Assembly: GCA_903842085.1 (NCBI GenBank)
Contig: CAIMLA010000043.1
Coordinates: 1,563-65,562 of the forward strand
Reading direction: 5' to 3'
DNA length: 64,000 bases
Source: an uncultured bacterium
Lineage (GTDB): Bacteria > Patescibacteriota > CPR2 > UBA1875 > CAIMLA01
The notes below the pieces were generated by a model. It was not told the origin of the DNA, did no database searches, and worked only from the letters and a program-made list of their open reading frames with translations. Positions 6,522-64,000 of this stretch are shown in pieces. Position 1 is the first letter of the stretch. Every line of letters begins with the position of its first letter. Made by a program: the position numbers and the translations under genes.

Positions 6522-8597
6522 ATGGAGCAAAACATTTTTAAATTAAAAAGTAACTTTGAACCACAAGGCGATCAGGGCCAAGCGATCGCTAAACTTAATC
6601 GTGGTTTAGAAAATAACTTCAGATATCAGACTCTCCTGGGGGTGACTGGTTCTGGGAAGACCTTTACTATGGCCAAGGTTGTCGAAAAAATACAGAAGCC
6701 AACCCTGATTATTTCTCATAATAAAACCTTAGCCGCCCAGCTTTATAGTGAATTTAAAGAATTTTTCCCAAACAACGCTGTTCATTACTTTGTCAGCTAT
6801 TATGACTACTACCAACCGGAAGCATATATACCAAGGACAGACACCTACATTGAAAAAGACGCTTCCATCAATGAAGAAATTGATCGTCTCCGGAATGCTG
6901 CCACGAGTGCCCTATTATCAAGGCAAGACACTCTGATTGTCGCGAGTGTTTCTTGTATCTATGGCTTGGGGGATCCAGAAGATTACAATACTTTAGCTTT
7001 GTCTTTAGAGCTAGGAGAAGAACGGAGTCGAGATAAGATCATTAGAAGACTAATTGACATCCAATATAACCGGAATGATAAGGTTTTTGAGCGAAGTAAC
7101 TTTAGGGTTAGGGGTGAGACAATTGATATTTGGCCAAGTTATGAAGAAGAAGGCATTAGATTGGAATTAGATAGTAATAATAGAATTTGTGTTATAAAAA
7201 AATTTAACCCCTTAACCGGAGAATTTTTGTCGAAGCTGAATTCGGTGACAATTTTTCCAGCCAAACATTTCGTAACGACGAAAGAGCGGATTAAAGAAGC
7301 GACCATAAAAATTAAGAGTGAACTGGAAGAGAGAATAACCGACTTAAAGAATGACAGTAAATTGCTCGAAGCCGAACGGCTGTCGCAAAGAACCAACTAT
7401 GATATGGAAATGCTCGAGGAGGTCGGATACTGCTCAGGGATAGAAAACTATTCTCGTCACCTGACAAATCGTCCACCAGGCGTCCAGCCAGCCACCCTGA
7501 TTGATTATTTCCCAGAGGATTACCTTCTCATGGTTGACGAATCTCATATGACCATACCTCAAATCAGGGGGATGTTTCACGGGGATTATTCGCGGAAGAA
7601 AACCTTGATCGACTTTGGCTTTAGACTGCCGAGCGCCTTTGATAATAGACCACTGAAATTTCATGAATTTGAGGATCATATTAAAAATGCTATTTTCGTT
7701 TCGGCAACGCCAGGTAGCTATGAGATTGAGAAAAGCACCGATGGGCAAGTACTAACCGCTGAGGAGTACTACCTGGCAGTTAAAAAAGGGAGAGACTTTG
7801 CCAAAATTAGTGAACAGGTCATTAGGCCAACCGGGTTATTAGATCCAATGATTGAGGTTAGAAAAACGGCTAATCAAATAGATGATCTAATCGCCGAGAT
7901 TAGAAGAGTCATCAAAACCAAGCAAAGGGTTTTGATTACGACCCTAACTAAAAAAATGGCAGAGGAACTGGCACAGTATTTGGCGGAGATGAATATTAGG
8001 GTCAAATATTTGCATTCTGAAATTCATACTTTAGATCGGCCCGAAATCATCCGAGAACTAAGATTGGGTATCTATGATGTTTTAGTAGGAATCAACCTGC
8101 TGAGAGAAGGCATCGATCTGCCCGAGGTTTCTTTGGTTGCAATCTTAGATGCGGATAAAGAAGGTTTTCTAAGAAGCGAGCAAGCGTTAATTCAAACTAT
8201 AGGCCGAGCGGCTCGTCACAGTCAAGGGCGAGTTATCATGTACGCTGACCAAAGAACTGGATCAATGGAAAGAGCAATCTTTGAAACAAATAGACGCCGA
8301 GAAATTCAAGAAAAATATAACCAGCTAAACAATATAACGCCGATAACAATCAAGAAAAAAATTGCGGACTCAATGGCTTCTCCTAAAAAAGGTGAAAATA
8401 ATGATGGTAAGTTCGAGATTTCTGGAATACCAAGAGATGAACTTGAAAGATTAATTAGAGATCTTGAAAAAAAGATGAATCTGGCCGCTAAAAATTTGGA
8501 GTTTGAAAAAGCCTCGGAATTCCGCGATCAAATAAGGTTGATCCGAACTGAATTAGAAAAAAACGATTTTAAGAAGAAAATTAAAAAACTTAGTTAG
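6522..8597 (+). CDS. uvrB: Excinuclease ABC subunit B
   Basis: Walker [15 protein letters not shown], helicase motifs, and a C-terminal UVR domain ([11 protein letters not shown]). Confidence 0.96.
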
Positions 8598-8633
8598 ATT
8601 AGTTATAGTTGTCCTGCCGATCAGGACATAGCC

Positions 8634-9092
8634 CTAATCGGCAGGTTTTGGTTTGAGTTTTTTTACAGCAGGAACTTTGATCGTGGTAACGTAATTGTTG
8701 CCTTCTTTTTTCAGATTAATTGTGCCACCGATGCGGGCCAGAAGTTTTTTGGCGATCATTAAACCCCGACCGTGACAACGAAGCTCGTCTCCGGGCTTGT
8801 CTTCTTCTTTGACGCAATCTAGGCCATTGCCATTAGGTGAGTCTGGGTTGATAATTTGTACCGTTAACCCCGCATCATCTCTAACAATAGTGGCTGAAAC
8901 ATCACAGCCGCCATAGAGAAGGCCATTACTGACCGCCTCACTAACAGGGACGGTTACGCAAAGCACGTCTTTTGGATTAATGATACTTAGGGCCTCTTCT
9001 GCCGCCGCATCTCTTATAATGGCCATTGGACTTTGACCGGTTTCGTTTTCTTCTGAGTGTAAATCTAGCTTATAACGACGGGTGATAATCAC
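8634..9092 (-). CDS. Histidine-kinase-like ATPase (RsbW/SpoIIAB-type anti-sigma kinase fold), orphan
   Basis: An N-box-like SEAVSNGLLYGG and a G-box-like GRGLMIAKKLLARIGGTINL are present. It uses a GTG start with GAGGAG 8 nt upstream. It is the only minus-strand gene between uvrB and uvrA. Confidence 0.55.
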   Translation of the reverse strand: MIITRRYKLDLHSEENETGQSPMAIIRDAAAEEALSIINPKDVLCVTVPVSEAVSNGLLYGGCDVSATIVRDDAGLTVQIINPDSPNGNGLDCVKEEDKPGDELRCHGRGLMIAKKLLARIGGTINLKKEGNNYVTTIKVPAVKKLKPKPAD

Positions 9093-9178
9093 GAGAATCG
9101 CTCCTCAGTAAACTGATTTTTAATGTTCAAACCTATCCCTATTGTCTCCCATGGAATGAAATTGTCAAATCAAAATGC

Positions 9179-9207
9179 TTGAAATGTGGCTAAAAAAAGA
9201 GTACAAT
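9179..9207 (+). promoter_or_regulatory. Sigma70-like promoter upstream of uvrA (TTGAAA-17 nt-TACAAT)
   Basis: The -35 is at 9179-9184 and the -10 at 9202-9207, with a 17-nt spacer. Confidence 0.5.
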
Positions 9208-9240
9208 TTTAAAGTTTCTGACGCTAATTGAGGGGATTAA

Positions 9241-12054
9241 ATGCATAACAATATTGTTATTACTGGCGCACGTGAGCATAATTTAAAAAATATAAATGTG
9301 GCTATTCCACGTGATAAGCTGGTCGTAATTACTGGCTTGTCAGGATCTGGCAAATCATCTTTAGCCTTTGATACAATCTATGCCGAAGGTCAAAGACGGT
9401 ATGTCGAGAGTCTCTCAAGTTATGCGCGTCAATTTTTAGGCTTAATGGAAAAGCCTGATGTTGATCAAATCGAAGGTCTTTCGCCAGCAATTTCGATTGA
9501 TCAGAAATCAACGACTAAAAATCCTCGTTCAACTGTTGGCACTGTCACTGAAATATATGATTATTTGAGGTTGCTCTATGCCCGAATTGGTATCCCACAT
9601 TGCCCAATTTGTGGTCGCGAAATTACCAAACAAACAGTTTCACAAATAGTTGAGCAAATATTATCAAAAGACTCGGGAACCAAATTTATGATACTGGCTC
9701 CAATCATTAAGGATAAAAAGGGTGTACATAAATATGTATTTGAAGGTCTAAAAAAGGCTGGCTATGCTCGCGTCAGAGTGGATAATAAAATATTCGATAT
9801 TGATGAAGAGATAACCTTAGATAAAAATAAAAAGCACACCATAGATGCGGTCATTGATCGCTTAATTGTGGGTAGTGAAATTGGCAAACGATTAATTGAA
9901 TCAGTCGAGGCGGCCCTCAATCTGGGTGAAGGAGTGATGATTTATTTTGACAATGATAGTCAAGAAGAGGAAGTCTATTCCCAAAACTTTGCTTGTCCTA
10001 ACTGCCATATTAGCTTGCCCGAGATTTCTCCAAGGAGTTTTTCATTTAATAGTCCTCATGGTGCCTGTCCAGTCTGCACTGGCCTTGGTTCTAGGCTTGA
10101 GATAGACCCAGAACTGGTCGTCCCTAATAAAAAACTGACTATTGCCGAAGGAGCGATTCGGTATTGGAATCGAACAACGGACAAATTAAATTGGTATACC
10201 CGCCTTTTGAAAACAGTCGGCGAGAAATACGACTTTACGGTTGATCAGCCGATCAGTACCATTACGGAAAAATCATTGAATATTATTATGTATGGTAGTG
10301 GAGATGAGCTTTTTAACTTTCAGCTTGGTTCAAGATCTTATGAAGCGACCTATGAAGGCGTTGTGGCCAATCTAGAAAGAAGATATCTAGAAACAGATTC
10401 AGATTATATCCGGAACGAAATTAGAAAATACATGGGCGAGAAAATCTGCCCAAAATGCCAAGGAAAAAGGTTGAAGCCCGAATTTTTGGCCGTTACAATT
10501 GTCGGCCGGTCGATTGTTGATTTGACAAATTATCCAATCAATGAGGCTTTTGATTATTTCAATAAGTTAGAGTTGAGTAGTCGAGACAATAACATCGCAA
10601 AGCAGATTTTGAAGGAGATTAAAGCTCGTCTACGTTTCTTAATAAATGTTGGCCTAGATTATCTAACGCTAGATCGGAGTGCCAGTACCCTCTCTGGTGG
10701 TGAAGCTCAGAGAATCAGACTAGCCACCCAGATTGGATCTTCATTGATGGGGGTAATTTATATCTTAGATGAGCCTTCAATCGGTTTGCATCAGCGCGAT
10801 AATTATCGCCTGATTGATACTCTGAAGAATTTAAGAGATTTGGGAAATACAGTCATAGTTGTTGAACATGATAAAGACACGATGGAAGAAGCCGATTGGT
10901 TGATCGATGTTGGCCCAGGCGCGGGCGAAAAAGGCGGAGAGGTCATTGCGGCTGGGACACCAGATGAAGTAAAAAGGAATCCAAATTCACTTACGGGTCA
11001 ATACCTAAAGGGAGAGAAAAAGATCTTCTGTCCCACGAGTCGGAGAAAGGGAAACGGGAACGAAATAGTTGTGATTGAAGCAGAAGAGAATAATCTTAAA
11101 AAAATAAATGTCCCAATCCCTCTCGGAAAACTGGTCTTAGTGACCGGGGTCTCTGGCTCAGGTAAGTCCAGCCTAGTAAACGATGTTTTGGCTAAAAAGC
11201 TGGCTCAGATCTTTCATCGAGCCCAAGAGCCAGCAGGGAAACATAAAGAGATTATTGGCTTAAAAAATCTAGATAAAGTTATTAATATCGATCAGTCACC
11301 AATTGGCCGAACCCCACGATCTAATCCGGCCACTTATACTAAGGCCTTTGATGACATTAGAGAATTATTTTCGAATGTTCCTGAAGCCAAGATTAGAGGA
11401 TACAAAAAGGGCAGGTTTAGCTTCAATGCAAAGGGGGGCGGGCGTTGTGAAGTCTGCCGAGGTGAGGGGATATTAAAAATTGAAATGCATTTCTTGCCTG
11501 ATGTCTATATCACCTGCGAAGAATGTGGCGGGAAGAGATATAACAAAGAAGCCTTAGAGATACACTATAAGGCGAAAAATATCTCTGATGTTTTGAATAT
11601 GACGGTTGGGGAAGGGTATGAATTTTTTCACAATATTCCTCAAATAAAACGAAAACTAGAAACCCTGGTCGAGGTTGGCTTGGGCTATATTCGGCTCGGT
11701 CAACCAGCCACCACTTTATCTGGTGGCGAAGCTCAAAGAGTTAAACTAGCCTCTGAATTAGCCAGACGTTCTACAGGGAAGACCCTTTATATTTTAGATG
11801 AGCCAACGACGGGACTCCACTTTGATGACGTCAATCGCTTAATGCATGTCTTGAATAAGCTTGTTGATATCGGCAATACCGTTTTAGTGATCGAGCACAA
11901 TCTAGAAGTTATTAAATGTGCCGATTGGATTATCGATCTAGGGCCAGAAGGTGGAAACAAGGGGGGTGAGATTCTGGCGCAGGGAACACCAGAACAATTA
12001 GTTAAAGAAAAAAAATCATATACTGGGCAATATCTGTCTAAAGTTTTAGCCTAA
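9241..12054 (+). CDS. uvrA: Excinuclease ABC subunit A
   Basis: Two ABC ATPase modules ([18 protein letters not shown], two LSGGE), zinc-finger Cys pairs, and 937 aa in length. Confidence 0.97.
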
Positions 12055-16470: not shown

Positions 16471-16493
16471 ACTCCATAACTATGGAGTTTTTT
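16471..16493. terminator. Bidirectional intrinsic terminator between the SBP gene and the convergent tRNA operon
   Basis: AAAAA-ACTCCA-TAACTA-TGGAGT-TTTTT. The hairpin has an A-run and a T-run, so it reads as hairpin plus U-tract on both strands. Confidence 0.65.
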
Positions 16494-16579
16494 GGTGCCC
16501 GAGGCGGGACTCGAACCCGCAAGATGTCACCACCAACGGATTTTAAGTCCGTCGCGTATACCAATTCCGCCACCCGGGC
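16493..16579 (-). tRNA. tRNA-Leu(TAA), 87 nt, long variable arm, CCA encoded
   Basis: The reverse complement is GCCCGGGTGGCGGAATTGGTATACGCGACGGACTTAAAATCCGT...GGGTTCGAGTCCCGCCTCGGGCACCA. Cloverleaf folded by hand; anticodon loop CTTAAAA. Confidence 0.9.
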
Positions 16580-16624
16580 ATTAGATTTAAGCAAAACCAA
16601 ACGAATCAGGAAGCCCCATCAATC

Positions 16625-16699
16625 TGGAGGCCTCGCCCGGAATTGAACCGGGGTGAACGGTTTTGCAGACCGCTGCGTAAACCACTCCGCCACGAGGCC
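16625..16699 (-). tRNA. tRNA-Cys(GCA), 75 nt, CCA encoded
   Basis: The reverse complement is GGCCTCGTGGCGGAGTGG...GCGGTCTGCAAAACCGT...GGTTCAATTCCGGGCGAGGCCTCCA. Anticodon loop CTGCAAA. Confidence 0.9.
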
Positions 16700-16706
16700 A
16701 TTTATA

Positions 16707-16782
16707 TGGAGCGAGAGACGGGGCTCGAACCCGCGACCTCAACCTTGGCAAGGTTGCGCTCTACCAGCTAAGCTACTCTCGC
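16707..16782 (-). tRNA. tRNA-Gly(GCC), 76 nt, CCA encoded
   Basis: The reverse complement is GCGAGAGTAGCTTAGCTGGTAGAGCGCAACCTTGCCAAGGTTGAGGTCGCGGGTTCGAGCCCCGTCTCTCGCTCCA. Confidence 0.92.
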
Positions 16783-16819
16783 AAACACACGTGGACTAGA
16801 TTACGTCGAGATTGATTTA

Positions 16820-16895
<76 letters not shown>

Positions 16896-16963
16896 TTATT
16901 TTCTTTTTCTTCTTACTAAGATTCTTCTGGCGATAAATAACGTCCAGATCAATCTTGGTAAAA

Positions 16964-17040
16964 TGGTGGGCGATGGGGGATTCGAACCCGCGACCTCCTC
17001 GGTGTAAACGAGATGCTCTAACCAGCTGAGCTAATCGCCC
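16964..17040 (-). tRNA. tRNA-Val(TAC), 77 nt, CCA encoded
   Basis: The reverse complement is GGGCGATTAGCTCAGCTGGTTAGAGCATCTCGTTTACACCGAGGAGGTCGCGGGTTCGAATCCCCCATCGCCCACCA. Confidence 0.9.
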
Positions 17041-17077
17041 CGATATCAATGTTCAATTGACTCGTATCCCTTAACTT

Positions 17078-17164
17078 TGGTGCGGACGAGAGGACTTGAA
17101 CCTCCAAGACCTTTCGGTCACTAGCACCTCATGCTAGCGCGTATACCAATTCCGCCACGTCCGC
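17078..17164 (-). tRNA. tRNA-Leu(GAG), 87 nt, long variable arm, CCA encoded
   Basis: The reverse complement is GCGGACGTGGCGGAATTGGTATACGCGCTAGCATGAGGTGCTAG...GGAGGTTCAAGTCCTCTCGTCCGCACCA. Anticodon loop ATGAGGT. Confidence 0.9.
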
Positions 17165-61008: not shown

Positions 61009-62184
61009 ATGGCAGAAACATTTCAAAGAACTAAGCCACATGTCAATGTAGGAACCATTGGCCACGTTGATCATGGGAAGACAACCTTGACTGCCGCTAT
61101 TCTAAAAGTCCTTGGGGACAAAGGAATGGCTAAAGTTGAGAAATTTGAAGAAATTGATAGTGCACCCGAGGAAAGAGAACGTGGTATTACGATTGCGACT
61201 CATCACTCAGAATATGAGACAGAGAAACGCCATTATGCTCACGTTGACTGTCCAGGACATGCTGATTATGTTAAAAACATGATTACTGGAGCAGCTCAAA
61301 TGGACGGCGCAATCTTGGTTGTTGCAGCTACTGATGGTCCTATGCCTCAAACCAGAGAGCACTTACTCTTAGCTAAACAAGTTGGTGTACCAAAGATTGT
61401 CGTTTATATGAACAAAGTTGATCAGGTCTCTGATCCAGAAATGCTTGATCTAGTAGAAATGGAGATCAGGGAACTTTTGACAAAATATGAATATGACGGC
61501 GATAATGCGCCTATTATCAAAGGGTCTGCACTAAAAGCTTATGAAGGCGATGCAGAAGCCCAAAAATCAATTATGGAACTTTTAGATGCTCTTGATACTT
61601 ATATTCCAGAACCGGTTCGTGATATTTCTAAACCTTTCATGATGGCAGTAGAAGATGTTTTCTCGATCAAGGGACGAGGGACGGTTGCGACTGGTCGTAT
61701 CGAAAAAGGTGTAGTGAAAATTAACGAAGAAATTGAAATCGTTGGGATCAAACCAACCCGAAAAACTGTTGTTACCGGGATTGAAATGTTTAAAAAACAA
61801 CTTGATCAAGGTCAAGCGGGTGATAATGCCGGAGTTTTACTGCGAGGCATAGAAAAAGCAGATATCGAGCGTGGAATGGTTCTTGCAAAACCCGGCTCAA
61901 TTACACCCCATACAGAATTTGATGCAGAAGTATATATTCTAACCAAAGAAGAGGGTGGAAGACATACTCCATTCTTCAAAGGTTATAAACCTCAATTCTA
62001 CATTAGAACAACTGACGTTACCGGTGAGATCACTTTCGACGGCGAAATGATTATGCCTGGTGATCGAGTTAAGATGGGCGTCAAATTGATTCAACCAATT
62101 GCGATCGAAGAAGGATTAAACTTCGCGATTCGTGAAGGTGGTAGAACTGTAGGCTCAGGTATCGTAACAAAGATTAACAAATAA
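61009..62184 (+). CDS. tuf: Elongation factor Tu
   Basis: [27 protein letters not shown] and NKVD. The ATG at 61009 follows AAAGGAG. Confidence 0.98.
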
Positions 62185-62192
62185 TAATCATA

Positions 62193-62513
62193 ATGGCCGA
62201 AGAAAAAACAAAACAACGAATTAGGATAAAGCTTAAAGCCTATGACCACAAGATCATAGATCAATCTTCGGTTCAGATTATCGAAGCGGCTGAACGTAGT
62301 GGAGCCATCGTTATGGGTCCAATCCCTCTACCAACAGATCGTAGTCCGATTACGGTGTTACGAGCAAGTAATATCGATAAAGATTCTAGGGAGCAGTTTG
62401 AGATGAAAGTTCACAAAAGACTGATCGATATTACAGACTATACTAACAAAACCGTCGATGCTTTAATGAACATCAATCTTCCTGCCGGAGTCGATATCGA
62501 AATCAAAATGTAA
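62193..62513 (+). CDS. rpsJ: 30S ribosomal protein S10
   Basis: [17 protein letters not shown] and VHKRLIDI are canonical S10. Confidence 0.96.
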
Positions 62514-62549
62514 AGAGCTTAAAACCTTTTATATTGTACGAACACTTGT

Positions 62550-63134
62550 TTGAATGATAAAACCGCTATTGGGGTCGTGACCGAAAAGATCTCAAACACA
62601 ACTGATCAATACCGAGTCCAATACGAAGGTAAAGCGATCGTCAAAGTCTCTATCGAAAATGGTGCTATCACCGCCGGCGATCTTCTTACGACTTCTGCCA
62701 CTAACCCAGGCACTGTCGTTAAAGCAACTGAGACCTCAACGGTCACTCTTGGCTTAGCCCTAGAATCAATCGCTGTGGATGGGGAAATGGCGATTATGTT
62801 ACGAACTTCGTATGTTACAGCAGCGGGTAACTCTGTTTTGTCTGAAACCCCTGGAGACGTCAAGGTAGCTGGTACTGGCAAACTATATTTTGGTGATGCC
62901 GAGACATATTATTTTTCTTTGAATGGCACTACGCTAGAATTAAATACGGCATTTAAAGCAAGTGGAGATTTTGAAACTTCTGGTTCTTTTTCACTCGGTG
63001 GTGGAATAACTTGGTCAAAGGGGGCTGGCGCGCCGACTGGAACTTGTACAACCGGGAGTATGTACAGTCGGGTTGACGGCTCTGCTGGATCAACACTCTA
63101 TGTTTGCGAAAAGGGCGCTTGGATTGCAAAGTAA
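62550..63134 (+). pseudogene. Beta-rich tail-fibre/surface-protein-like ORF, probably a 5'-truncated remnant
   Basis: It has no ATG, no RBS and no signal peptide; the frame opens at 62523 and the only early start is TTG 62550. The sequence is Gly/Thr/Ser-rich and ends in TGTCTTGSMYSRVDGSAGSTLYVCEKGAWIAK. It occupies the position where rplC is expected. Confidence 0.4.
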
Positions 63135-63485
63135 TTTTCTTAGACACTCTATCGATAGATCTTTTTAATAAGGACGAGGATGACAAAAAGCAGAAATCAA
63201 TTACTATGCTTTTCGACTTTTTTATCTCTGGGAAAAAAACCTAAAAACGGCTCATTTTATCTTTCTAGTCTGACGAGACCTGCAGACGACTGATTGATCG
63301 AGGCAATCGAGGACAGTTCTCCAACTTCTCGGCTCATTGCAGTCGTTCTAAGGATTAAGAGGTGCTATATAGTTTGAGACTATCGAGAGCCAATGAAGGG
63401 CTTATTCTTTTTACCGATACGACTTATTAAGTAATATGGTTAATATAATAATGTATAAAATTGACAGATATGATAAGATTTTTTT

Positions 63486-64000
63486 ATGGATAATATATCA
63501 GGAAGTGTAAATTCATCAGAATCAATGCCTGGGCTTGAACCGACCCTGCCTGGACAAGATGAAAAAGACTTGCGAATAGGAGAAGGCATAGAAGATTCAG
63601 AAAAAACGCTTATGGATTATGGGCAAAACAATAACCCTGAAGATCCCTCTTATTTAACGAGGCTAGGCATTGAACTAGTAAATGGCGATGATCCAGAAAA
63701 TGCAGATTATAGATTAAGTAAACCTACTTCCAAATGCGAAATGTCTTTGGTCATAGCCGCAAAGGATGAGGAAGAGAGAATTGGTCCAATGCTTGAATCT
63801 CTCTCTATCCAAGAAGGTTTAGCTGATAACCTCGATAGTTTTGAAGTGATTATTATTGTAAATAATTGTACTGATTCGACTATAGAGGCAGCTCAGTTAA
63901 AAATAGAAGAAATAAATAAAAAGCTTGGAGATGAGGGCCGAACGGATAGACTGCAGGTACACTTGATTGATGTTAAGTTTAAAGACGGTGAAGGAGGCGT
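63486..64000 (+). CDS. Family 2 glycosyltransferase, 3'-partial (runs off the window; not in the ORF track)
   Basis: Hand translation from ATG 63486 has no stop before the window end. After an acidic leader of about 85 aa it reads MSLVIAAKDEEERIGPMLESLSIQ...FEVIIIVNNCTDST, a typical GT2 N-terminal pattern. Confidence 0.65.
   Translation, partial: MDNISGSVNSSESMPGLEPTLPGQDEKDLRIGEGIEDSEKTLMDYGQNNNPEDPSYLTRLGIELVNGDDPENADYRLSKPTSKCEMSLVIAAKDEEERIGPMLESLSIQEGLADNLDSFEVIIIVNNCTDSTIEAAQLKIEEINKKLGDEGRTDRLQVHLIDVKFKDGEGG

Follow-up and report, generated by a model that had tools for sequence, protein, structure and literature searches.

In nearly all bacteria, rpsJ is followed directly by rplC-rplD-rplW-rplB and the rest of the S10 operon, and a linkage of tufA and rps10 inside the str cluster has been reported for cyanobacteria and plastids. 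In other phyla, small gene insertions (bfd-bfr; ilv-leu) have been described at the str/S10 boundary, with full disconnection of the two clusters then found in many descendants (PMC8046335). In those published cases the boundary lies between tuf and rpsJ and the inserted genes are intact, whereas in the locus described here rpsJ has been kept with tuf, the boundary lies between rpsJ and rplC, and the inserted DNA is a gene fragment.

The fragment resembles a type of protein from uncultured CPR-like bacteria (P0273, P0002 and P0004) that combines a Peptidase_S74 domain, a phage-cement-like beta domain and a variable C-terminus. S74 proteins cleave themselves at the serine with which the chaperone domain begins, and their trimeric fibre lies upstream of that domain. 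Full-length genes of the P0273 type are located in chromosomal contexts, beside MacB/FtsX or rpsF-ssb-rpsR.

The window, by which we mean the whole 64,000-nt stretch of DNA analysed, contains the run rpoB-rpoC-rpsL-rpsG-fusA-tuf-rpsJ, of which rpsJ is the final gene. The initial annotation described a str run that stops at rpsJ and gives way to an open reading frame (ORF) without ATG, about 350 nt of gene-free DNA and a family-2 glycosyltransferase (GT2) gene, and this order was confirmed in the window. The features of the locus are as follows.

62193 to 62513, plus strand: rpsJ, ribosomal protein S10 (Pfam Ribosomal_S10, E 5e-34)
62514 to 62537, plus strand: remnant of the ancestral rpsJ 3' flank, which aligns with the sister lineage L083 and contains the TAA at 62520-62522
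62538 to 62552, plus strand: left breakpoint zone, where the rpsJ terminator is gone and homology to the parent gene type has not yet begun
62550 to 63134, plus strand: ORF194, 194 codons from a TTG start, 5'-truncated copy of a P0273-type gene
62553 to 62840, plus strand: N-module, a truncated phage-cement-like beta domain (alignment, jackhmmer, Phage_cement_2 match in a relative)
62841 to 63131, plus strand: C-terminal part (homologue matches, AF2 model, Foldseek)
62952 to 63131, plus strand: tip module, approximately residues 135-194 of ORF194, with its motif and two conserved Cys
63135 to 63381, no strand: window-specific non-coding DNA with no counterpart in L083
63382 to 63485, plus strand: GT2 upstream region, conserved with L083 (85.7% identity together with the gene)
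63486 to 64000, plus strand: start of a probable GT2 gene (Pfam Glycos_transf_2), cut off by the window's end

The join between rpsJ and ORF194 is real. It is crossed by 11 contigs from 11 other metagenome assemblies (L001, L084-L088 and L093-L097) at 95-100% identity, which fall into two naming series (BUCK21-1 scaffolds and k141 contigs) and include diverged strains at 98.2% and 99.2% identity. The right-hand junction is also crossed by L093 and L094, both of which carry the stretch from 63135 to 63381 at 100% identity. Since the junction is shared by 11 independent contigs, a mis-join at 62.5 kb, which the initial annotation had itself named as fatal to its reading, can be dismissed, and the unusual gene order at rpsJ is neither a binning nor an assembly error.

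The description of the site as one of the most conserved junctions in bacterial genomes does not hold in the clade of the window. Among 80 related loci, rplC was found directly downstream of rpsJ on the same strand in 76, with a median gap of 232 nt. The gap exceeds 500 nt in 8 of these 76, reaching 0.7-3.6 kb in relatives, and all three of the large gaps that were examined (L005, L007 and L009) contain unrelated genes. The nearest species, L003 and L004, whose RpsJ proteins are 97% and 95% identical to that of the window, keep the rpsJ-rplC order. Relatives with this canonical order conserve a terminator after rpsJ together with a separate promoter (TTGACT-17-TATAAT) and leader before rplC. 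The organism of the window appears to be a Saccharibacteria-like CPR bacterium. In its clade rpsJ closes one transcription unit and rplC opens another, and in Saccharibacteria-like bacteria the point at which the str/S10 region can be broken is between rpsJ and rplC, not between tuf and rpsJ, because of the terminator and the separate promoter and leader located there. No rplC was found in the 1.49 kb of the window that is left after rpsJ. P0157 was considered as the rplC product of the source genome and rejected, as it belongs to a relative with the canonical order.

Comparison with L083, whose RpsJ protein is 100% identical to that of the window (90.5% nucleotide identity), places two changes at the locus. 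In L083, rpsJ is followed by a terminator, 159 nt and then the GT2 region, which matches window positions 63382-63871; ORF194 is not there, and the GT2 orthologue comes directly after rpsJ. The loss of the rplC adjacency is therefore older than the insertion of ORF194. Relative to L083, approximately 800-850 nt are specific to the window (62538 to ~63334-63381). On the left, similarity to L083 stops at 62537, which is the position of the terminator hairpin of the relatives: a strong hairpin 20-45 nt past the rpsJ stop was found in L083, L003, L004, L091, L092, L005 and L007 and is missing in the window. On the right, the breakpoint lies between ~63334 and 63382, where significant homology to L083 restarts; a leftward extension of this homology from 63382 to 63334 was not significant. 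Set against L083, these alignments make the window-specific segment an insertion that parts rpsJ from the GT2 gene, and it appears to have replaced the rpsJ terminator. We infer the polarity, an insertion in the window and not a deletion in L083, from one argument, that of the terminator.

The synteny with L083 therefore bears out the insertion scar that was proposed at rpsJ. The accompanying suggestion that the scar is possibly phage-derived found no support: ORF194 had no match in 50,697 GenBank phages (tblastn), a scan of IMG/VR with P0273 gave no close relative, and at the locus there were no flanking phage or mobile genes, no repeats beyond chance and no tRNA.

The spacer between ORF194 and the GT2 gene (63135-63485) contained no notable ORF and no Rfam match, and its folding was not unusual (z = +0.37). 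A weak terminator-like hairpin is located at 63387-63403, in the GT2 upstream region. Two features that had been singled out in the spacer, the palindrome CTATCGATAG (63149-63158) and an ATCGAGG doublet (63296-63312), are present, but neither is significant, as chance alone would give about 0.38 perfect palindromes of 10 nt and 0.89 doublets of this 7-mer kind per 351 nt of the window. No further repeats above chance level were found in the spacer or its flanks. For the GT2 ORF, the match to Glycos_transf_2 stays below the cut-off (17 bits, E 0.006). It is weak because the window stops after the first 46 of the 168 positions in the profile; a search with its N-terminal 171 residues found no relatives.

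The longer gene postulated behind ORF194 was found as a type. Residues 2-194 of ORF194 align without gaps to residues 147-339 of P0273 at 77% identity, so that ORF194 corresponds, in the same order, to the final 193 residues of this 339-aa protein, which carries a Peptidase_S74 chaperone domain (24.4 bits against a cut-off of 22, in the N-terminus), the phage-cement-like beta domain and a Cys-containing tip. Peptidase_S74 is also present in P0004 (E 2e-11) and P0007. The first 146 codons of P0273 are missing from ORF194, and with them the S74 domain, the linker and the strands that open the beta domain; what is retained is the 3' 57% of the gene. Consistent with this, a Pfam scan found no Peptidase_S74 domain in ORF194, and the S74 cleavage region is absent. 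At the nucleotide level, homology of the region to L002, L090 and L098 begins at 62553; a three-residue similarity (TNT) upstream of the TTG start was rejected as an extension, since it needs a gap and is not significant. A search of 5.8 billion proteins with ORF194 recovered solely ORF194 itself and the P0002/P0273 cluster, and no full-length protein more than 80% identical to it was present in the protein database that holds ORF194. On these alignments, ORF194 is a 5'-truncated gene copy.

In ORF194 itself, profile scans found no Pfam, PHROG or NCBIfam family, and the best PHROG match was faint (phrog_19421, 'head decoration', E 0.57). Its two modules have counterparts in relatives. The N-module is 69-72% identical to that of P0002 and P0004 and, in P0002, P0004, P0007 and P0273, comes after the Peptidase_S74 domain. 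It spans residues ~103-250 of P0273 (alignment and jackhmmer), and ORF194 lacks approximately the first 40 residues of the family module. A family member, P0134, matches PF09956 (Phage_cement_2, formerly DUF2190) over residues 16-106 (32.2 bits, cut-off 24, profile positions 22-99), and the N-module family shares the motif pattern of this head-decoration/cement fold. In the N-module family the domain is not a capsid protein by itself but forms part of fibre-like proteins, in which it comes after S74 or G2 chaperone-type regions. ORF194, without the N-terminal part of the module, falls below all thresholds, with no match to PF09956 at E <= 1.

The tip module is defined by the motif W.KG.GAP.G.C..GS.Y.R.DG....LYVCE..W..K, and in its alignment the columns G, P, C, G, R, G, Y, C, W and K are invariant. 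A phmmer search of 1.84 billion representative proteins with ORF194 as query gave 406 matches. Nearly all of those listed carry the module at the extreme C-terminus, the match reaching the final residue. The 1346-aa P0003 ends in a copy that is 71% identical, and the family also includes tip-only members such as P0040 (76 aa) and P0026 (104 aa). In none of the scanned members did the tip module match a Pfam family. An AF2 model of the C-terminal 98 residues, built from an alignment, was all-beta with a pLDDT of 88, whereas single-sequence AF2 of the whole ORF194 was unusable (pLDDT 37). In a Foldseek search of BFVD, the tip model matched phage tail-spike/pectate-lyase proteins (E 1.1e-5 to 9e-4 (~1e-3), probability 1.0, 25-46% identity). 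In the PDB there was no sequence match for ORF194 and no fold match for the tip model at E <= 0.001 (best E 2.2).

In IMG/VR, 196 stretches were related to the tip module, the best at 45-62% identity. In 16 of 23 examined viral proteins the stretch reaches the final residue, and in six more it ends 4-8 residues before the stop. The viral carriers examined are 450-1100 aa long and match PHROG tail-fibre and tail-spike families; phrog_21909 is matched through the tip-like region, although ORF194 itself gave no usable PHROG match for its tip. Phage tail fibres and tail spikes that end in GS(L/M)Y.RTDGG..TTLYVKE.G.GNTGW.AK (phrog_21909-like) thus carry a homologous module of ~45-60 residues at their extreme C-terminus. 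Unlike ORF194, these viral versions have no counterpart of the two cysteines, and their G.GNTGW tail is longer. The S74 and cement relatives, together with the PHROG and BFVD matches, support the likeness to C-terminal modules of tail fibres and large CPR surface proteins that the initial annotation put forward.

The frame of ORF194 is closed upstream by the TAA at 62520-62522, and its earliest in-frame ATG is at codon 80; before this, the candidate starts are solely TTG and GTG. The TTG at 62550 has no Shine-Dalgarno sequence. The GTG at 62577, chosen by other annotators (P0001, 185 aa), has a weak GGGG 3 nt upstream and gives a product of 185 aa. Sites of the AAGGAG type are clear at many neighbouring genes and are absent at rpsJ and at the GT2 gene as well. 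The statement in the initial annotation that ORF194 has no ATG, ribosome-binding site or signal peptide is therefore correct for the ATG, a good ribosome-binding site and the signal peptide, but the GTG with its weak GGGG is usable; 'start-less' means that an ATG and a good ribosome-binding site are lacking, and a start is still possible.

The higher GC content of ORF194 was also seen, at 0.46 against a window mean of 0.403 (top 3.3% among 585-nt windows). Its GC3, 0.374, equals that of rpoB, rpoC, rpsL and rpsJ. As GC3 matches the host genes, the GC surplus is due to Gly, Ala and Thr codons, that is, to amino-acid composition. A foreign base composition was rejected, and by its composition ORF194 does not look like a recent import.

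ORF194 is thus probably, though by no means certainly, a gene remnant, the 3' 57% of a P0273-type gene left as an insertion relic after rpsJ. It would be non-functional or at most fortuitously expressed, since the chaperone domain, the opening strands of the beta domain, an ATG and a good ribosome-binding site are all missing. Unlike the full-length genes of this type, ORF194 lies 37 nt past rpsJ and comes without a promoter region. In the sequence of events that we propose, the str-tuf-rpsJ unit would have parted from the rplC operon in the common ancestor with L083 and landed beside the GT2 gene, a separation that could be tolerated because a terminator closes rpsJ and rplC is served by a separate promoter and leader. 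In the window species only, ~800-850 nt would then have been inserted between rpsJ and the GT2 gene via illegitimate recombination, as a headless gene fragment with ~200-250 nt of flank, and the rpsJ terminator would have been deleted. The spacer at 63135-63381 could have arrived with the fragment or afterwards. Later, a second allele with a different C-terminal module may have arisen through homologous exchange. At present, transcripts of the str operon probably read through into ORF194.

The second allele is an observation in its own right. Two alleles are present at the locus, allele A (the window type) and allele B (the L087 type, with L086 as far as covered), which share the N-module and differ by a swapped C-terminal module. 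They switch at a domain boundary (…MLQTNY), where P0273 and P0002/P0004 also diverge, and the full-length genes of this type carry the same two alternating C-terminal module types. Given allele B, there is a small chance that ORF194 has a function.

The alternative that survives best, which we nevertheless consider unlikely, is a functional lineage-specific 'tip-only' protein of 185-194 aa, made from the GTG at 62577 or the TTG at 62550 and co-transcribed with the str operon, which might be a soluble or cap-like tail-fibre tip or an adhesin module. With no terminator between them, rpsJ and one of the strongest operons stand directly before ORF194, and TTG or GTG starts could be used, rpsJ and the GT2 gene being likewise without Shine-Dalgarno sequences; ORF194, however, has neither a signal peptide nor an ATG. 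The 585-nt frame is intact in every one of the 11 contigs, and allele B is open over the stretch seen. However, the contigs with allele A are all identical within ORF194, so these copies give no information on selection or decay at the locus and their intact frame is untried by time. Between the alleles, the shared N-module has 10 synonymous changes and 1 non-synonymous change, but this excess could stem from selection on functional donor genes. The C-terminal half is confidently predicted as a compact beta domain, and the tip-only proteins P0040 and P0026 occur in the family. Against this reading, the truncation of ORF194 falls ~40 residues inside a conserved beta module, its S74 chaperone is missing, and ORF194 is absent from L083.

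A silent, promoter-less cassette for switching the tip of a full-length S74-type gene, by analogy with pilS/vls, would account for a start-less ORF with homology to the 3' portion of a full-length gene type, and for alleles that differ by a C-terminal module swapped at the domain boundary of the full-length relatives. We regard it as very unlikely. Exchange from strain to strain explains the allelic difference equally well, the remaining 62 kb of the window hold no second copy of ORF194, neither repeats nor motifs of recombination sites are conspicuous, and the protein database that contains ORF194 lacks the full-length gene more than 80% identical to it that would be its partner.

Still less probable is that ORF194 is the stump of a P0273-type neighbour gene, cut through when a rearrangement parted rpsJ from rplC. 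An inversion or translocation breakpoint would then lie inside a P0273-type gene beside the GT2 gene, and L083 would have lost the stump later. In favour of this, the fragment does start abruptly inside a domain, exactly at the junction, and reduced genomes tend to delete pseudogenes. In L179 and L180, ~260-300 nt are seen upstream of rplC, and L180, which is from the sample of P0002 and has an accession neighbouring that of the sample of L083, has rplC with its usual promoter and leader but with a divergent gene in place of rpsJ upstream. However, the terminator in L083 is at the same position after rpsJ as in the canonical relatives, which is more simply ancestral than regained. The divergent gene in L180 is also not what a broken S74 gene would leave there, a 5' half pointing at rplC, and the assignment of L180 to the L083 organism is uncertain. 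Finally, an assembly chimera at ~62.5 kb of a metagenome-assembled genome, suggested by a source that resembles a metagenome bin and by the splitting of every other assembly near the locus into contigs of 1 kb or less, is practically ruled out by the sharing of the left junction among the 11 contigs, diverged strains included, and of the right one by two.

As a gene remnant, ORF194 and its insertion represent ordinary genome plasticity at an insertion-tolerant spot of this group, and what annotators label as a 185-aa 'hypothetical protein' is a truncated gene. Its tip module is widespread, and phage tail fibres and spikes often end in it too. There is a slim prospect that ORF194 has been wired to the strongest operon, either as an abundant tip-only adhesin or cap, or as a stored cassette that swaps receptor-binding tips with S74-type genes. 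If this were true, the two alleles would be snapshots of tip switching, a variation of host attachment in an episymbiotic CPR bacterium made from tail-fibre parts. Should ORF194 be expressed or exchange tips with a full-length gene, it would bear on the variation of attachment proteins in CPR episymbionts.

On the + strand of the window, rpoB, rpoC, rpsL, rpsG, fusA, tuf and rpsJ follow one another, and the region 3' of rpsJ is arranged as follows:

62193-62513, + strand: rpsJ (Pfam Ribosomal_S10, E 5e-34)
62550-63134, + strand: ORF194, 194 codons, the next ORF 3' of rpsJ
63135-63485: spacer between ORF194 and GT2, 351 nt
from 63486, + strand: probable GT2 glycosyltransferase gene (weak Pfam match, E 0.006)

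The GT2 match is weak because the window stops within the domain, which is preceded by an extension of ~85 residues. The first 171 residues of this protein (63486-63998) had no relative among 5.8 billion proteins at E <= 1e-10, and a partial orthologue in the sister lineage L083 was the sole relative seen. For tuf, the mechanical ORF begins at TTG 60988, and ATG 61009, which has a good AAGGAG site and agrees with the start in relatives, is likely the true start. Elsewhere in the window, six clustered tRNA genes (16493-17164, - strand: Leu-taa, Cys, Gly, Phe, Val, Leu-gag) are surrounded by genes of which nearly all occupy the + strand.

The frame of ORF194 is closed upstream by a TAA at 62520. 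The initial annotation described it as having neither ATG nor ribosome-binding site, which holds in so far as the earliest in-frame ATG is codon 80 and no good site was found; the possible starts are TTG 62550, where no Shine-Dalgarno sequence is present, and GTG 62577, which follows a weak GGGG and was chosen by a public annotation (P0001, 185 aa). Clear AAGGAG-type sites are present at many genes of the window and absent at rpsJ and GT2. ORF194 is indeed GC-richer than its surroundings (46% vs a window mean of 40.3%, top 3.3% of equal-sized windows). Its GC3 of 0.374 is that of rpoB, rpoC, rpsL and rpsJ, so the excess comes from Gly/Ala/Thr codons and carries no foreign signature; a foreign base composition was thus ruled out. 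The spacer had no Rfam match, its folding was not unusual (z = +0.37) and it held no repeats beyond chance level; a palindrome and an ATCGAGG doublet pointed out previously are both near chance expectation (~0.38 for a 10-nt palindrome and ~0.89 for such a doublet per 351 nt of window).

The insertion scar that had been proposed is supported by L083, which runs from rpsJ through a terminator (AAAAGAGTCCTGCTACTGGCAGGGCTTTTTTT) to the GT2 region without the ORF. Its RpsJ protein is 100% identical to that of the window (90.5% nt identity), and a total of 159 nt lies between rpsJ and the stretch that corresponds, at 85.7% identity, to window positions 63382-63871 (the GT2 gene and its upstream region). 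The two are alignable for ~24 nt past the rpsJ stop and diverge exactly at the expected start of the terminator; significant homology is found again from 63382, and its backward extension to 63334 was not significant. Some 800-850 nt (62538 to about 63334-63381) are therefore specific to the window species, the segment having replaced the terminator. As L083 already has rpsJ beside GT2, adjacency to rplC was lost before ORF194 arrived. We infer insertion in the window lineage, rather than deletion, since L083 retains the terminator of all canonical relatives.

Only ORF194 itself and one other cluster (P0002) came out of a word-based search across 5.8 billion proteins, and HMMER, run in full on 1.84 billion representative proteins, gave 406 hits, in two modules:

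ORF194 residues 2-100: N-module, a phage-cement-like beta domain, found within larger proteins
ORF194 residues ~135-194: C-module, a Cys-containing tip, motif W.KG.GAP.G.C..GS.Y.R.DG....LYVCE..W..K

The N-module comes after a Peptidase_S74 (S74) chaperone domain in P0002, P0004, P0007 and P0273, and its copy in P0134 is above threshold for Pfam Phage_cement_2. The C-module is the extreme end of proteins 66 to 1620 aa long, including P0003 (1346 aa), whose final 105 residues are 71% identical to the C-terminal part of ORF194. The search for a full-length parent gene recommended in the initial annotation led to the P0273 type: residues 147-339 of P0273 (339 aa, cluster-mate of P0002) align without gaps to ORF194 residues 2-194 at 77% identity, and an S74 match above the Pfam threshold covers its residues 9-56. 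Aligned members of the N-module family share a conserved L..GDvV…V.K segment ~24-40 residues upstream of the beginning of ORF194. ORF194 therefore has neither the S74 domain nor the linker, is missing the first strands of its own first domain, and has the look of a 5'-truncated fragment.

Some of these proteins have peculiarities of their own. Contig L002 ends 3' in Nextera adapter sequence (~975-1029, CTGTCTCTTATACACATCT…), so the last ~14 residues of P0002 are artefactual. P0003 (locus L089, 1239-5279) has an odd architecture, in which MerR/HTH_17 DNA-binding domains at the N-terminus are combined with a membrane-spanning segment, long fibre repeats of the GNVGIGT type and, at the C-terminus, the tip seen in ORF194. 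In P0058, copies of the cement-like module are preceded by an intein (Hint) splicing domain, and P0062 has a closely similar N-terminal sequence.

Two alleles of the locus were found. The public contig L087 and, over its available length, L086 have the same left junction and are identical to the window up to 62725; up to 62786 this allele shows ten synonymous and one non-synonymous change, and past 62788 the C-terminus of L087 is unrelated (…GFSLGIDGHLIVKGDLEIQG) and belongs to the P0002/P0004 type. In full-length genes too, one or the other of these two C-terminal modules follows this boundary (P0273 vs P0002 and P0004). Sharing of the left junction with a switched C-terminus points to homologous exchange at the locus after truncation.

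The likeness to tail fibres noted earlier is real. The C-module alignment found 196 related stretches in IMG/VR; the match reached the last residue in 16 of 23 viral carriers examined, mostly proteins of 450-1100 aa, and the carriers matched tail-fibre, tail-spike and depolymerase PHROG families. An AlphaFold model of ORF194 residues 97-194 (51-row alignment) was all-beta with a pLDDT of 88, and Foldseek ranked pectate-lyase or tail-spike proteins of phages first among viral models (E 1e-5 to 1e-3); no solved structure matched ORF194 or this model. A phage derivation of this particular fragment, also suggested, found no support: tblastn against 50,697 GenBank phage records gave no ORF194 hit, IMG/VR contained no close relative of P0273, the viral modules lack the two cysteines of the ORF194 C-module, and ORF194 is flanked neither by genes of phages or mobile elements nor by repeats beyond chance. 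The nearest full-length relatives adjoin MacB/FtsX or PRC-rpsF-ssb-rpsR genes.

On sequence grounds, ORF194 is probably an insertion remnant of a P0273-type gene: insertion of the fragment between rpsJ and GT2 would have taken out the rpsJ terminator, and the fragment would then likely be read through from upstream, without function. It is possible, with a distinctly lower probability, that ORF194 is translated and now a lineage-specific tip-only protein; its intact frame says little about selection, because ORF194 is identical in all contigs with the window-type allele. A silent cassette for tip switching seems improbable, and slightly more so a stump left when the rearrangement itself broke a neighbouring gene, given the terminator that L083 shares with canonical relatives. 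An assembly chimera, the mis-join at 62.5 kb that would have undone the remnant reading, is excluded for practical purposes: when public assemblies were queried with the exact RpsJ and ORF194 proteins, 11/11 short contigs (559-921 nt; L001, L084-L088, L093-L097) from 11 separate metagenome assemblies, belonging to two naming series, spanned the rpsJ/ORF194 junction at 95-100% identity to the window, and L093 (to 63423) and L094 (to 63407) crossed the right-hand boundary too. At its beginning (1-~130, window 61999-62124, the tuf 3' end) L085 has 33 substitutions and two 3-nt insertions, and is identical to the window from 62125 on; either its tuf allele is mosaic or this end of the contig is chimeric.

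The rpsJ/rplC boundary was surveyed in 80 loci from an RpsJ scan, with one genome per species. The nearest species, L003 and L004, have the canonical order rpsJ-rplC-rplD-rplW-rplB-rpsS-rplV-rpsC-rplP, with RpsJ 97% (tuf-rpsJ 83.6% nt identity) and 95% identical to that of the window, respectively. A same-strand rplC lies downstream of rpsJ in 76/80 loci (median gap 232 nt). The gap is longer than 500 nt in eight cases and longer than 1 kb in four; the long gaps inspected are filled with unrelated genes (four miscellaneous genes in L005, three paralogous small membrane proteins in L007), and L009 lacks rplC within 3 kb. In L004, a 1.5-kb GC-richer spacer between rpsJ and rplC (8470-9970) contains only odd, low-complexity-looking ORFs and could be an insertion or a chimeric stretch of the genome bin. 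A strong terminator hairpin follows the rpsJ stop by 20-45 nt in all relatives inspected, and a TTGACT-17-TATAAT promoter with a ~110-nt leader is conserved 5' of rplC among the nearest relatives:

L003 10430-10592; L004 9807-9970; L091 ~9800-10000; L179 100-262; L180 131-295: rplC sigma-70-type promoter and leader (five related genomes)

The leader matched no Rfam family and may serve r-protein autoregulation in this clade as an element not yet described. In L179 (1-119) and L180 (1-150), divergently transcribed genes, not rpsJ, precede the promoter and leader, L179 beginning MNMYTINPNIPKVRLEAVRMLHKGYS… (HTH-like in look) and L180 MEYVLMSRKELDQVS…; rpsJ and rplC may thus have split more than once among these lineages. 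P0002 and L180 share a sample, whose accession adjoins that of the L083 sample, and the L180 arrangement fits the loss of rpsJ/rplC adjacency seen in L083, should both contigs belong to one organism.

Insertions at the str/S10 boundary, followed by disconnections, have already been documented in other phyla (PMC8046335). With its terminator, separate rplC promoter and long gaps, the junction is not especially conserved in this clade, and its earlier ranking among the most conserved ones of bacterial genomes found no support here. In the clade of the window, rpsJ ends the str-tuf unit and rplC starts a separate one, which accounts for the tolerance of the junction to insertions.
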